Assembly (NCBI GenBank): GCA_965649055.1
Contig: CBFGJG010000007.1
Coordinates: forward strand, 40,037-63,782
Length of the DNA stretch: 23,746 nt
Origin: a candidate division WOR-3 bacterium
Lineage (GTDB): Bacteria > Hydrothermota > UBA3072 > B12-G15
Direction of reading: 5' to 3'
Part shown: piece after piece, positions 1,386-16,736 of the stretch
How positions within the stretch are numbered: position 1 is the first letter of the stretch
Layout: each line of letters opens with the position of its first letter
The notes under the pieces: model-generated
Databases searched by the model: none
What the model was told of the DNA's origin: nothing
What the model saw: only the letters and a program-made list of their open reading frames with translations
Position numbers and translations under genes: made by a program

Positions 1386-1710
1386 GGTGTCAGTCATAAA
1401 CCTTCAACTTTTCCTGTAGAAAAGAATGGGATTGCCACGTCTTCCGAAGGAAGGCTCGCAATGACAAAAAAGGAAAAAGAAGGGGATTGCCACGTCTCTA
1501 TGCAACTCGCAATGACACATTATAGGAGTCATTACGAGCATTGGTCTTCTTACATATTTGCTACTCAATGCGTGGTAATCCCGGGTGTTAAAAAGTAAGA
1601 AAAGATGAGATTCCCACGGGCTTTGGTAGTTATGCAAAGTAGTCTGCAAGCCCTCGGAATGAAAACTTGCGATGTCAGATTCCCACGTCGCTATGCGACT
1701 CGGAATGACA
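1386..1710 (-). repeat. Palindromic repeat array 1 (5 units, one inverted) plus terminal motif
   Basis: Minus-strand units at about 1428-1466, 1483-1517, 1607-1662 and 1677-1710. Oppositely oriented ATTAC/GTAAT unit at 1528-1582. Terminal motif at 1386-1424. Confidence 0.95.
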
Positions 1711-6253: not shown

Positions 6254-7522
6254 ATGAAAAGATTTATTTTTATCATCCCTTTATTTTTAATAGCTTCTGA
6301 ATTCCAGTTTGGTGGTTATTTAAATCTTGATTCAAGGATGAACCTTAAAGACCATTATTTTAATTTTAATGAGTCAAGATTAGATTTTAACCTGAAAGCA
6401 TCAAATGATAATTTTAATTTTTTCACAGAATTCTGGGTAAGGGAAAACGGTATTAAGAACATTTATAAATTAGAAGAACTTTCAAGCGAAGATATGTTCA
6501 ATATCTCATTAGAGATGAAAGAAGGATATATAAGCCTTTCGAATTTCCCGTTTGATTTCATTGACCTGCGCATAGGTAAACAGAGGACAGCATGGGGAAC
6601 CGCATATGTATTCAATCCAACAGATAATATGGACCCGCTTGACCTTGAAGATATATGGGATTTTGAAAGTAGGATTTCATCATTTTCTTTAAAGATGAAT
6701 ATCTTCGTAAAAGATTTCAGTCTTCAGGGTATTTATATCCCTTTCTTTACCCCATCAAGGCTTCCCGAAGAAAGATTGTTAAATATATTCTATCCAGTTA
6801 ACCCTATGGTTTCTTCTGTTGAGAATACGATAATTCTTCCATCGAGAACAAAAGAAAATTCAATTTATGGAATAAGGGTTAAAAAGAATATTTTAGGAAC
6901 TGACCTTTCAGTAAGTTATGTTTACGGAAGAAATACCCTACCTTTTCCTGATAAAATCACCATTATCCCAACTACTTCAGGTATAAATGTTAATACAGAA
7001 CTCGTTTATCCAAAACAACAGATTTTTGGTTTTGATTTTGCAACATCTTTTGATAGGTTTGGATTCTGGGGTGAGATTGGATATTTTATACCTGAAAGTC
7101 TTAATTGTCTTATTGACAGGAGTTTAATTGGTTTAGGAACATCTGATTCTCTTATTCTTGATAAGAATTATTACAAATATGTTTTGGGAGCTGACTATAG
7201 ATACAACGATATATATGTTTTACTCCAGTATGTTTATGGCTTCCCGTATGATGCAGGGGAAAATATAAATGACTTTTTACTCCTTCATTCATCTTTTAAA
7301 TTACTTGAATCAAAGATAGAATTGAATTTTAATTATGCACTCGAATTTTACAATATTGATGATAAGGAATTTTCACATCTTTTATCACCTGAAATATCAT
7401 TCTATCCTTTAAGTAATATACAGATAAAAGCAGGTTTAAAGTATATTTTCGGTGATTACGGGAATTTTGGGAAACTAAAAGATGAAAGAAATGTTTATGT
7501 AATATTTAAATACAATTATTAA
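6254..7522 (+). CDS. Putative outer-membrane beta-barrel protein (DUF1302-like)
   Basis: Likely start ATG 6254 after GGAGG. DLRIGKQRTAWG...NPTD motif, C-terminal aromatic end (FKYNY), and the common MMPL-LolA-barrel gene order. Confidence 0.7.
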   Translation: MKRFIFIIPLFLIASEFQFGGYLNLDSRMNLKDHYFNFNESRLDFNLKASNDNFNFFTEFWVRENGIKNIYKLEELSSEDMFNISLEMKEGYISLSNFPFDFIDLRIGKQRTAWGTAYVFNPTDNMDPLDLEDIWDFESRISSFSLKMNIFVKDFSLQGIYIPFFTPSRLPEERLLNIFYPVNPMVSSVENTIILPSRTKENSIYGIRVKKNILGTDLSVSYVYGRNTLPFPDKITIIPTTSGINVNTELVYPKQQIFGFDFATSFDRFGFWGEIGYFIPESLNCLIDRSLIGLGTSDSLILDKNYYKYVLGADYRYNDIYVLLQYVYGFPYDAGENINDFLLLHSSFKLLESKIELNFNYALEFYNIDDKEFSHLLSPEISFYPLSNIQIKAGLKYIFGDYGNFGKLKDERNVYVIFKYNY

Positions 7523-7547
7523 AGTTTAGGAAGATTTAGGAAATAAT

Positions 7548-7807
7548 TTAACACCTGAGATTACCACGCATTGAGTATAGCAAATATGTAAGCAATCTCA
7601 ATGCTCGTAATGACTTCTACACTTTGTCATTCCGAGAGTTTGCCTGCATCTTGCTTGTCTTATCAAACTCGTGGGAATCTCATCTTTTCTTCCTTTATGT
7701 GTCATTGCGAGGGCTGTTATTCTTCTTTGCGTATCCATCAAAAGCCCGTGGCAATCCCATGTTTTTTTGTTGTCATTCCGAGTCGCATAGCGACGTGGGA
7801 ATCCCAT
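7548..7807 (+). repeat. Palindromic repeat array 2 (4 units, first inverted), upstream of GIY-YIG gene
   Basis: Inverted unit 7557-7614. Forward units 7625-7681, 7700-7758 and 7771-7805. Confidence 0.95.
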
Positions 7808-7838
7808 CTTTTTACTTGTTAAACATATATATTTTAAA

Positions 7839-7866
7839 TTGACTTTATTATCAATTTCTGTATTTT
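7839..7866 (+). promoter_or_regulatory. Putative promoter for the GIY-YIG gene (leaderless)
   Basis: TTGACT-16 nt-TATTTT, 6 nt before ATG 7873. No SD. Confidence 0.5.
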
Positions 7867-7872
7867 AATTTT

Positions 7873-8160
7873 ATGAAACATAATTATTATGTTTACATCT
7901 TAACGAATAAAAACAACACTGTATTATATACAGGCGTAACCAACAATCTTAAAAGACGGGTCTATGAACATAAAGAAAAAATAATAAAAGGATTTACAAG
8001 TAAATACAATATAGATAAATTAATTTATTATGAAATTTATGATGACATAGAAAATGCAATAAAGAGGGAAAAACAGATAAAAGACACTTCAAGGGCAAAA
8101 AAGGAAAAATTAATAAACGCAATGAATCCGGAATGGAAAGACTTATATAAAGATATATAA
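7873..8160 (+). CDS. Small stand-alone GIY-YIG nuclease (YhbQ/UPF0213-like)
   Basis: 95 aa: YYVYIL...LYTGVTNNLKRRVYEHK...AIKREKQIK...LINAMNPEWKDL. The Tyr/Gly/Arg/His/Glu positions typical of GIY-YIG are present. Confidence 0.93.
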   Translation: MKHNYYVYILTNKNNTVLYTGVTNNLKRRVYEHKEKIIKGFTSKYNIDKLIYYEIYDDIENAIKREKQIKDTSRAKKEKLINAMNPEWKDLYKDI

Positions 8161-8213
8161 GTTTATTGACAATATTCTTATTTTTCATTCCTTGTCTTTC
8201 GATTCTTCTGAAT

Positions 8214-8553
8214 TGTCATTTCAAGCCTTTCATTTTTCCTGTCATTCCGAGCCTTTCGAAGAAAGACGTGGGAATCTGACAACGCAAGTTGTCATTGCGA
8301 GCATTCCGCAGGAATGCGTGGCAATCCCATCCTTTCTTCCTTTATGTGTCATTGCGAGCCTTTCGAAGAAAGGCGTGGCAATCCCATGTTTTCTTATTTT
8401 TTAACACCCGAGATTACCACGCATTGAGTATAGCAAATATGTAAGCAATCTCAATGCTCGTAATGACTTCTACACTTTGTCATTCCGAGTCGCGCAGCGA
8501 CGTGGCAATCCCATCCTTTCTACAAGAAAAGTTGAAAGTTTATGACTGACCCC
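8214..8553 (+). repeat. Palindromic repeat array 3 (5 units, one inverted, one degenerate half unit) plus terminal motif
   Basis: Units 8240-8277, 8290-8328, 8347-8385, inverted 8410-8467, and 8478-8512. Terminal motif 8515-8553. Confidence 0.95.
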
Positions 8554-8562
8554 AAAAAATGC

Positions 8563-8590
8563 TTGAAAAAATATTTCAAAAATATATTAT
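8563..8590 (+). promoter_or_regulatory. Putative promoter for the DUF3467/glycosylation operon
   Basis: TTGAAA-16 nt-TATTAT, followed by AAGGAG SD. Confidence 0.5.
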
Positions 8591-8607
8591 AAAAAAAAGG
8601 AGAAGAT

Positions 8608-8925
8608 ATGGATTTTAAAAAGAAGGAACAGAATGTTCCACCTATGCAACAGCAGTTAGAAATAGACCTTGGAACAGTTGAAGGTGTTTATTCAAACCTT
8701 GCTGTCATTACACATTCACCAGCAGAGATAATCATTGATTTCTGTAGAATCCTTCCCGGTATGCCAAAGGCAAAGGTTCAATCAAGAATAATAATGACAC
8801 CACAGCACGCAAAACTTCTTATGAAGGCACTTGAAGATAATCTGAAAAGATTTGAAGAGAAATTTGGTGAGATAAAACTCCACACAGGTGAAGAGGGAAA
8901 GAATATAGGTTTCAAGGTTGAATAA
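8608..8925 (+). CDS. DUF3467 domain protein
   Basis: EGVYSNLAVITHSPAEIIIDF...AKVQSRIIMTPQHAKLL...ALEDNL...FGEI is characteristic of DUF3467. Confidence 0.9.
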   Translation: MDFKKKEQNVPPMQQQLEIDLGTVEGVYSNLAVITHSPAEIIIDFCRILPGMPKAKVQSRIIMTPQHAKLLMKALEDNLKRFEEKFGEIKLHTGEEGKNIGFKVE

Positions 8926-14680: not shown

Positions 14681-15094
14681 GCAATCCCTTCCTTTTCTTC
14701 CTTTATGTGTCATTGCGAGTCTTTCGATTTTCCTCTATTTGTCATTCCGAGCCTTCCGCAGGAATGCGTGGCAATCCCATCTTTTTTGTTGTCATTCCGA
14801 GGGCTTGCAGACTACTTTGCATAACTACCAAAGCCCGTGGGAATCTCATGTTTTCTTCTTCTCTTTTGTCATTGCGAGTCGCATAGCGACGTGGCAATCC
14901 CATATGTTTTTTTATTTTTTAACACCTGAGATTACCACGCATTGAGTATAGCAAATATGTAAGCAATCTCAATGCTCGTAATGACTTCTACACTTTGTCA
15001 TTCCGAGGCTTTCGAAGAAAGCCGTGGGAATCCCATCTTTTCTTCTTCTCTTTTGTCATTGCGAGCATTCCGCAGGAATGCGTGGCAATCTCAT
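14681..15094 (+). repeat. Palindromic repeat array 4 (6 units, one inverted, plus half units)
   Basis: Units 14740-14778, 14790-14847, 14867-14901, inverted 14928-14985, 14996-15034 and 15054-15092. Confidence 0.95.
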
Positions 15095-16162: not shown

Positions 16163-16736
16163 TTCATTTCGAGCCTTTCGATTTTCCTCTATTTGTCATT
16201 CCGAGCCTTCCTTTGGAAGGCGTGGGAATCTCATTTTTTTAATTTGTCATTGCGTGGAAATCCCATCCTTTTCTTCCTTTTATGTCATTCCGAGTCGCGC
16301 AGCGACGTGGGAATCCCTTCTTTTCTTACCTTTTAACACCCGAGATTACCACGCATTGAATAGCAAATATATAAGAAGACCCAATGCTCGTAATGACTCC
16401 TACACTTTGTCATTCCGAAGGTTTGCTATTACACCTGATTTGTCATTTCGAGTCCTTCGTTTTTCCTCTATTTGTCATTCCGAGCATTCCGCAGGAATGC
16501 GTGGCAATCCCATCTTTTTTCCCTTTCTTGTCATTCCGAGCCTTCCTTTGGAAGGCGTGGGAATCTCACAACGCAAGTTGTCATTCCGAGGGCTTGAAGA
16601 CTACTTTGCATAACTACCAAAGCCCGTGGGAATCCCATGTTTTCTTCTTCTCTTTTGTCATTGCGAGCATTCCGCAGGAATGCGTGGCAATCTCATTCCT
16701 TTCTATCAGAAAACTTGAAACTTTATGACTGACCCT
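16163..16736 (+). repeat. Palindromic repeat array 5 (7 units, one inverted, one empty unit, half units) plus terminal motif
   Basis: Units 16194-16232, 16283-16317, inverted 16342-16397, 16473-16511, 16529-16567, 16579-16636 and 16656-16694. Empty unit 16245-16264. Terminal motif 16698-16736. Confidence 0.95.

Follow-up and report, generated by a model that had tools for sequence, protein, structure and literature searches.

Do the repeats that crowd around a small nuclease gene belong to that gene, and if so, what does the nuclease do with them? The question is raised by a stretch of 23,746 nucleotides (nt) from an uncultured hot-spring bacterium of candidate division WOR-3 (hereafter the window). 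In it, a gene for a GIY-YIG protein of 95 residues, at 7873-8160, stands between two arrays of hairpin-forming repeats, and three other arrays of the same family contain no nuclease gene. This layout, described in an initial annotation, is confirmed by the open reading frames, by Pfam and by a pattern search. The annotation had also proposed a REP/RAYT-like system with a different enzyme. The gene and the repeats are indeed a true pair, found together in 72 of 80 homologous loci; the system is not new, however, since it has been published in outline by Chenal et al. (Nat Commun 2025, PMC11893778) under the name Ssn, given to small GIY-YIG nucleases that bind NTS/SRM hairpin repeats.

We consider that 7873-8160 is very probably a member of Ssn, that the surrounding repeats are its likely cognate hairpins, and that the protein is predicted to bind and cut them specifically as single-stranded DNA (ssDNA). 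What is new here is the uncultured hot-spring host, a repeat unit with two stems which the published SRM pattern misses, and the clustering of the units at envelope-glycan and surface loci. In a system already known, the two-stem unit represents a variant class of site.

The genome is a 2.08-Mb draft of 31.6% G+C in 85 contigs, in which the window is G000:C7:40037-63782; below, C designates contigs, and G the genomes of the same phylum.

The nuclease

The product of 7873-8160 has the size and the architecture of the Ssn family (about 94 residues, a single GIY-YIG domain): in a Pfam search, PF01541 (GIY-YIG) covers residues 4-78 of the 95 with an E value of 2.4e-19. SsnA from Neisseria meningitidis is likewise a single-domain GIY-YIG protein, of 94 residues (CDD cd10448; PMC11893778). 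A tblastn search of a plasmid collection with the 95-residue protein retrieved two N. gonorrhoeae records of 2.17 Mb each (E 1e-22). The gonococcal gene was taken as ssnA because its locus holds the published ssnA primer sequences and NTS flanks, and this chromosomal orthologue was used as a stand-in for N. meningitidis SsnA in all comparisons with Neisseria. In pairwise BLASTP it is 48% identical to the 95-residue protein over 89 residues (E 7e-33), well below the E < 1e-10 that Chenal et al. use for homology to Neisseria SsnA. The 2.17-Mb records (NZ_CP119142.1) are filed as 'plasmids', yet they are chromosome-sized. The gonococcal gene is apparently short of a few bases right after its ATG, as judged from the N. 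meningitidis start-codon primer.

Mutating Y6, Y17 or E64 abolished the nuclease activity of SsnA (PMC11893778). These residues align with Y8, Y19 and E66 of the 95-residue protein in the alignment to the N. gonorrhoeae orthologue, and the latter three are invariant in the 8 clade members aligned. The genome of Azospirillum lipoferum 4B, one of the 29 that served to define SRM (PMC11893778), encodes a homologue (44% identity, E 8e-22) flanked by CGTCATCCCCGCGAAGGCGGGGATCC units, which are CGTC-tagged hairpins. There, the ssn cassette and its flanking hairpin pairs (plasmid AZO_p3, 255106-256190) lie between sufB and sufC, two genes of an Fe-S cluster assembly operon. The closest solved structure to the 95-residue protein is that of the UPF0213 protein BH0048 (1zg2, E 2.7e-6), and an NCBIfam search gave sub-threshold matches only.

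The genome contains a single ssn copy. A second small GIY-YIG gene (C23:21783-22043, minus strand; a 106-aa frame, 37% identical) is UPF0213/YhbQ-like, and no hairpin unit was found within 1.5 kb of it. The third GIY-YIG match, a 594-aa frame, is probably UvrC.

The hairpin unit

The repeat unit consists of a left part, GTCATT[C/G/A]CGAG, and a right part, CGTGG[G/C/T]AATC, separated by a variable stem-loop of 11-35 nt. A search of the genome for exactly this pattern gives 60 matches, and none when it is read backwards; 26 units are in the window. Four units precede the ssn gene, and five full units and one orphan left half follow it, so that the gene is flanked on both sides by GTC-tagged hairpin repeats, as is typical of the Ssn family.

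The outer stem is maintained despite sequence variation: its variable position is Watson-Crick paired in 53 of 61 units (G-C in 21, C-G in 21, A-T in 11). The other eight are C/C hybrids, in which an ATTCC left arm faces a GCAAT right arm with a mismatch in the outer stem. One such hybrid sequence is found again at several loci, which means that mismatched units are still copied. The inner stem has at least 5 uninterrupted base pairs in 55 of the 61 units, across 31 different inserts. When eight units were folded as ssDNA, seven gave a two-stem hairpin of the same shape, made of a 5-bp outer stem, a small GA-vs-GTG internal loop and an inner stem-loop whose stem has 5-8 bp; the z-scores of the eight folds range from +0.09 to -3.34, and four of them are beyond -2.

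All pattern-matched units read GTC-ATT...AAT-C, with a tag that can be written (T)GTC. The bases before GTC are mostly T (TTT in 25 units, GTT in 6, TGT in 5, CTT in 3 and TCT in 2, of 61), and CCAT follows directly 3' of 26 of the 61 units. The initial annotation had noted a likeness to the Neisseria repeat dRS3 and to CGTC/TGTC-tagged palindromes, and this likeness holds: dRS3 is included in NTS (CGTCATTCCCGCGMAVGCGGGAATCYRG; PMC11893778) and is the same as CGTC-1 in the work of Di Nocera et al. (2013, PMC3733652) on CGTC/TGTC-tagged REPs. The units have the tag (CGTC/TGTC), the AT stem start and the CCA-type tail of this class. They depart from it in their stems: the CGTC-tagged REP families have stems of 8-9 bp and loops of 4-5 nt (PMC3733652), whereas the units here have two stems and inserts of 11-35 nt. 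According to Chenal et al., the positions that matter most for cutting and binding by SsnA are the GTC tag on the 5' side and the C that directly follows the palindrome; the units keep both, together with the AT stem start.

Orphan left halves (GTCATTSCGAGCCTTTCGA..., with no right arm) lie within 45 nt on the 5' side of 17 of the 61 full units; from their frequency in the whole genome, one would predict about 0.5 such cases. Examples of a half followed by a full unit are 8215-8276, 14709-14776 and 16442-16509 in the window, and others are on C4, C18, C20 and C66. The predicted cut site (see below) falls in the spacer between the orphan half and the full unit.

A composite segment of 104 nt which contains a reversed 'ATTAC' unit is present at 7533-7636 and at 8386-8489; these two direct copies (89% identical) bracket ssn and the inner units. 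A third copy, at 14904-15007 in a gene-less array, is 98% identical to that at 8386-8489. The segment copies suggest that multi-unit blocks are exchanged between arrays.

Pairing of gene and unit in other organisms

A survey of one genome per prokaryotic species gave 592 homologous stretches confirmed by tblastn, of which the best 80, 51-74% identical, were analysed; these loci are those most like the window protein, so that the figures hold for its clade and not for all small GIY-YIG genes. In these loci we used a generalised unit, defined as GTCAT, three bases, an insert, the complement of the three bases, and ATC (with only three complementary bases, this finder is too noisy for genome-wide use in an AT-rich genome, with 104 hits against 36 in reversed sequence). 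It detects 270 units, distributed over 77 of the 80 loci, and only 10 when the sequence is reversed.

A unit lies at most 200 nt from the gene in 72 of the 80 loci, and units are present on both sides in 44. In 32 of these 44, the nearest upstream unit is on the plus strand and the nearest downstream unit on the minus strand. The gap between unit and gene has a median of 21.5 nt on the start-codon side and of 9.5 nt on the stop-codon side. The enrichment of units in the flanks of homologues, a check proposed in the initial annotation, came out clearly: the density falls 35-fold, from 5.56 units per kb in the 200 nt next to the gene to 0.158 per kb at distances over 500 nt. A motif-free count of 7-mers recovers the words of the unit on the 5' side of the gene and, on the 3' side, the same words in reverse complement.

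The loci span Dehalococcoidia, Deltaproteobacteria, Atribacterota, anammox Planctomycetes, Nitrospirota, Elusimicrobiota and Clostridia, as well as groups of the Candidate Phyla Radiation, Melainabacteria, Bacteroidales, Omnitrophota, and Alpha- and Gammaproteobacteria. The outer stems covary in the clade (ATTGC/GCAAT, ATTCT/AGAAT, ATCCT/AGGAT, ATTCCC/GGGAAT). The pairing of gene and unit is conserved across phyla. The best matches outside the phylum are 74% (Atribacterota) and 72% (Deltaproteobacteria) identical, and the best match within the sampled phylum is 70% identical.

For the published system, ssn genes are reported to be typically flanked by repeats, with at least one SRM in 71% of the homologue regions and SRMs on both sides in 42%, and a homologue is present in 81% of the genomes that contain more than 200 SRMs (PMC11893778).

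Sixty genomes of the same phylum were also compared, those with at least 5 units by the general pattern being called unit-bearing. In G017, G027, G029 (two copies) and G039, units immediately adjoin close homologues of the protein. That repeat copy number should go with the presence of the gene, another relation which the initial annotation proposed to check, is borne out only loosely: a homologue is present in 10 of the 17 unit-bearing genomes and in 10 of the 43 others, counts that are descriptive only, since these genomes are mutually related and often fragmented at repeats. Unit-rich genomes with no detectable small GIY-YIG gene exist as well (G024 and G028, considered below). Several gene matches are found in G038 (6), G029 (5) and G027 (4); in G038 the units belong to a different class, and the general pattern therefore registers a single one.

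Proposed mode of action and its weak points

The biochemistry of Ssn comes from the Neisseria enzyme. SsnA binds NTS as ssDNA only and cuts a few nt upstream of it; it is inactive on double-stranded DNA, on RNA and on the reverse strand. It lowers the transformation of Neisseria by NTS-bearing DNA, and three further homologues cut their own repeats (PMC11893778).

By analogy, the system of the window is predicted to work as follows. Whenever the GTCAT-bearing strand becomes single-stranded, the unit would fold into its two-stem hairpin. The Ssn enzyme would bind the folded unit, and only on this strand, and would cut about 5 nt on the 5' side of the GTC tag, in the T-rich spacer. The arrays would label single strands from the envelope-glycan and surface-protein loci, whether incoming or exposed, as targets of the nuclease, and this cutting would lower or reshape recombination at these loci.

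Two loci, C7 37-57 kb and C4 2-10 kb, hold 43 of the 60 units. The former encodes RmlD-type and other epimerases, glycosyltransferases and a flippase, the latter a heptosyltransferase, an ArnT-like transferase and a protein with a secretion-sorting tail. Genes for ComEC and DprA are present, which makes ssDNA uptake plausible, and imported single strands a plausible substrate.

A number of observations weigh against this interpretation. The recognition of the two-stem units as cognate sites would be an extrapolation, because the published SRM search sequence, which is degenerate, has no match in the window or in the genome (and 3 in the reversed control); in the 80 homologue loci it gives 4 hits, in 4 loci. 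It is important to note that this sequence is a search aid of Chenal et al. and not a definition of the family. The activity of SsnA is abolished when the hairpin is kept but its sequence is altered (PMC11893778), so a transfer of specificity to the two-stem units should not be assumed. The binding and cutting of ssDNA are known from homologues (Neisseria and others), and the enzyme of the present clade is known by its sequence only. In the window itself, the layout is +/+, the nearest downstream units being on the plus strand instead of the usual minus strand; this is so in 7 of the 80 homologue loci. The arrays C4:7101-7350 and C11:9609-9918 are opposed to their flanking genes. The figure of 43 of 60 units in two loci is descriptive only. 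ComEC and DprA are common in control genomes (10 and 11 of 14, respectively), and their presence is not proof of competence. Last, G024 has 98 units and is 95% complete, and the GIY-YIG proteins detected in it by the Pfam model are of UvrC size only; G028, with 68 units and 99% completeness, has a GIY-YIG protein of UvrC size and a weak partial match in a 254-aa frame. Either the repeats persist in these genomes without the gene, or the gene was not assembled.

Alternative explanations

Two alternatives leave the nuclease a minor role. In the first, the repeats are REP-like and spread by a Y1 (RAYT/IS200-type) transposase encoded elsewhere, the GIY-YIG gene being a bystander that landed in an array. 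The genome does contain three Y1_Tnp-domain genes (C18:7867-8190, C10:46913-47236 and C13:31094-31423, of 300-319 aa with an N-terminal Y1 domain), but the flanks of all three are free of units up to a distance of 1.5 kb; the repeats do not track a RAYT or IS200 gene, and it is tracking of that kind which the initial annotation had named as speaking against its proposal. In addition, the tag of the units is TGTC and not GTAG, the GIY-YIG gene has units beside it in loci of many phyla, and Di Nocera et al. saw no transposase beside the CGTC-type repeats (PMC3733652). We regard this explanation as highly improbable. In the second, the units act mainly as RNA (terminators, mRNA stabilisers or cofactors of the nuclease) and their link with the nuclease is secondary. 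Four terminator-like sites lie in 7400-8700, against 0.6 +/- 0.9 in shuffled sequence, and three of them arise where a unit right arm precedes a run of T; moreover, the arrays on C7 are oriented like their flanking genes. On the contrary, the arrays on C4 and C11 mentioned above are not, and the inverted units that flank the gene across phyla indicate a symmetry at the DNA level. Rfam has no family at gathering score over the window, and its two matches in 7500-8600 are at chance level (E 1.2 and 3.7). The suggestion that repeat transcripts serve as cofactors is contradicted in the case of the Neisseria enzyme, since N. meningitidis SsnA does not bind the corresponding RNA and leaves it uncut (PMC11893778). 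A mainly RNA-level function is thus unlikely, though less so than the action of a Y1 transposase.

A third explanation is compatible with the assignment to Ssn: the unit-ssn-unit cassette could be an autonomous selfish mobile element, in which cuts at the hairpins would propagate both the cassette and gene-less units, through a homing-like or transposon-like process, and so seed the arrays. This was the main idea of the initial annotation, which called the locus the autonomous master locus. The flanks resemble terminal inverted repeats in the 32 two-sided loci described above. What paralogues of one genome have in common is limited to the gene, the 3' unit and some 25 nt on the 5' side; the common stretch measures 334 nt in G038 (91% identical) and 365 nt in G029 (84%). 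Besides the multiple copies of G038, G029 and G027, decayed copies exist in relatives: G043:C24 is frameshifted, G049:C17 has an in-frame TGA and G050:C211 is cut short by a unit. The best matches outside the phylum equal or exceed in identity the best one in the sampled phylum, which, with the patchy distribution among relatives, suggests horizontal transfer. However, GIY-YIG enzymes hydrolyse DNA and are not known to pass through covalent strand-transfer intermediates, so that the pasting would be left to host repair. The genome studied here has one ssn copy, and its latest duplications each span several units (91 nt at 98%, D9; 104 nt at 98%, D3), which recombination between arrays fits better than transposition unit by unit. 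No target-site duplication or empty site was found: orthologues of the DUF3467 gene located 3' of the array are present in G001-G003, three genomes of the same family, but the neighbour genes of the window are not within 1.5 kb of them, so synteny is lost and no empty site can be defined. Metagenome contigs contain two joints that skip the gene (7669->8267 and 7698->8289, at depth 2, in one contig each); they cannot be separated from other arrays or strains and are uninformative on excision. All in all, a selfish element is possible but doubtful. We are equally tentative about the broader proposal that a hairpin-ssn-hairpin of about 350-400 bp is a self-propagating element of a new mechanistic class, which would move between phyla and seed orphan CGTC/TGTC REP arrays, the units here being a co-evolving site class.

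Features and neighbourhood of the locus

Table 1. Features of the ssn locus and of the gene-less arrays (positions in the window)
Feature	Position	Strand	Remarks
Array without nuclease gene	1430..1709	-	4 units (three -, one +); between two - strand genes
56-nt 'ATTAC/GTAAT'-type unit, reversed relative to neighbours	7559..7614	-	exact pattern match; copy at 8409-8470 folds with two stems, z -2.67
Upstream unit	7626-7679	+	exact pattern match
Upstream unit	7701-7756	+	exact pattern match
Upstream unit	7772-7803	+	exact pattern match
Promoter-like site TTGACT-16-TATTTT	7839..7866	+	9/12 matches, consensus match only; just 5' of ssn start codon
ssn gene	7873..8160	+	intact open reading frame; 95-aa single-domain GIY-YIG nuclease, Ssn family (very probable)
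Orphan left half-unit	8215..8239	+	directly before full unit 8241-8276
Downstream unit	8241-8276	+	exact pattern match
Downstream unit	8291-8326	+	exact pattern match
Downstream unit	8348-8383	+	exact pattern match
Reversed 56-nt 'ATTAC/GTAAT' unit	8412..8467	-	inside 104-nt segment 8386-8489; exact pattern match
Last unit of downstream array, C/C hybrid	8479..8510	+	exact pattern match, fold
Array without nuclease gene	14709..15090	+	orphan half and 6 units (one reversed)
Array without nuclease gene	16195..16692	+	7 units (one reversed)

The neighbours of the locus in the window are glycosyltransferases, a polysaccharide flippase, a carbamoyltransferase, methyltransferases and a sugar epimerase. 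The initial annotation had seen no transposase, integrase or cas gene, and rightly so: none of these families was matched among the 20 open reading frames scanned. A tRNA scan found none.

At 7747-7761, 7795-7807 and 8370-8392, the right arm of a unit folds with its CCCAT tail into a small hairpin of another kind, with a run of T behind it, and scores as a terminator-like site. A rule according to which arrays follow the direction of their flanking genes was considered and rejected, as it is inconsistent among arrays.

Part of the stretch is present in five public hot-spring metagenome runs from two studies, and no RNA run is listed. The contigs from four of these runs are short; one contig of 500 nt (run X1) covers 7774-8273 with one difference.

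Significance

The locus adds a thermophilic member from an uncultured phylum to the Ssn ssDNA nucleases, a family which is of interest as a source of ssDNA-cutting tools. An enzyme adapted to heat, whose recognition hairpin is longer and modular, could make a useful reagent. There is also a large clade, spread over many phyla, whose two-stem hairpin site is undetected by the published search pattern, and surveys that use this pattern probably undercount the pairing of gene and repeat. To our knowledge, no mobilising enzyme has ever been shown for orphan CGTC/TGTC-type REP arrays; nucleases that spread their own repeats, if true, would explain the origin of the CGTC-type REPs.

Comparison with known systems

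Among mobile elements, IS200/IS605 shares with the present cassette subterminal hairpins recognised on one DNA strand in single-stranded form, and a very small size. There is neither TnpA nor TnpB here, and the mobility of the cassette is hypothetical. Chunjie MITE (a miniature inverted-repeat transposable element) was also considered and ruled out: it has 178-235 bp, with 21-bp terminal inverted repeats and 9-bp direct repeats.

The REP/BIME-RAYT systems ('REPtrons') are alike in that a single-copy enzyme gene is flanked by hairpin repeats recognised as ssDNA, and in that the arrays are mosaics with some reversed units. The enzyme is different, a hydrolytic GIY-YIG nuclease and not an HUH Y1 tyrosine transposase, and the Y1 genes of this genome are not beside units. 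Neither of the features that define a REPtron (a Y1 gene flanked by repeats, and a GTAG tag) is found, since the tag is (T)GTC. Chenal et al. themselves note in their Discussion that NTS-ssnA-NTS resembles an insertion sequence and draw the analogy with RAYT, REP and BIME, mobility being put forward there as a hypothesis only (PMC11893778).

The CGTC/TGTC REPs (dRS3/NIMEs, Rickettsia RPE-4/-6) come closer. They have the TGTC tag, the AT stem start and the CCA-type tail, and like the units here they form clustered mosaic arrays with no transposase alongside; Di Nocera et al. write that CGTC-type repeats 'apparently lack a dedicated transposase'. The units of the window differ in having two stems and up to 56 nt, and in having a candidate partner enzyme; Di Nocera et al. 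named none (PMC3733652).

The closest relative is the Ssn/NTS-SRM system. Both have a single-domain GIY-YIG protein of about 94 residues with the same catalytic residues (and the 48% identity to the Neisseria orthologue given above), flanking hairpins with a 5' GTC tag, an AT stem start and a 3' C, and tens of gene-less repeats clustered around surface-related genes, as NTS clusters adjoin surface-protein genes (PMC11893778). An orphan half before a full unit is also seen in the published oligonucleotides NTS2, NTS3 and NTS5 (Neisseria) and NTS_Dlyk (Dehalogenimonas). Four half-unit strings of the window are absent from the 12 supplementary files of PMC11893778 that were searched. The differences lie in the site and in the host: NTS has one 8-bp stem and a 4-nt loop, whereas in the unit of the present clade a 5-bp outer stem gives way to a conserved GA/G(T/A)(G/A) internal loop and beyond it to a second, freely variable stem-loop with inserts of 11-35 nt; and the host here is an uncultured bacterium from a hot spring, neither a symbiont nor a pathogen.

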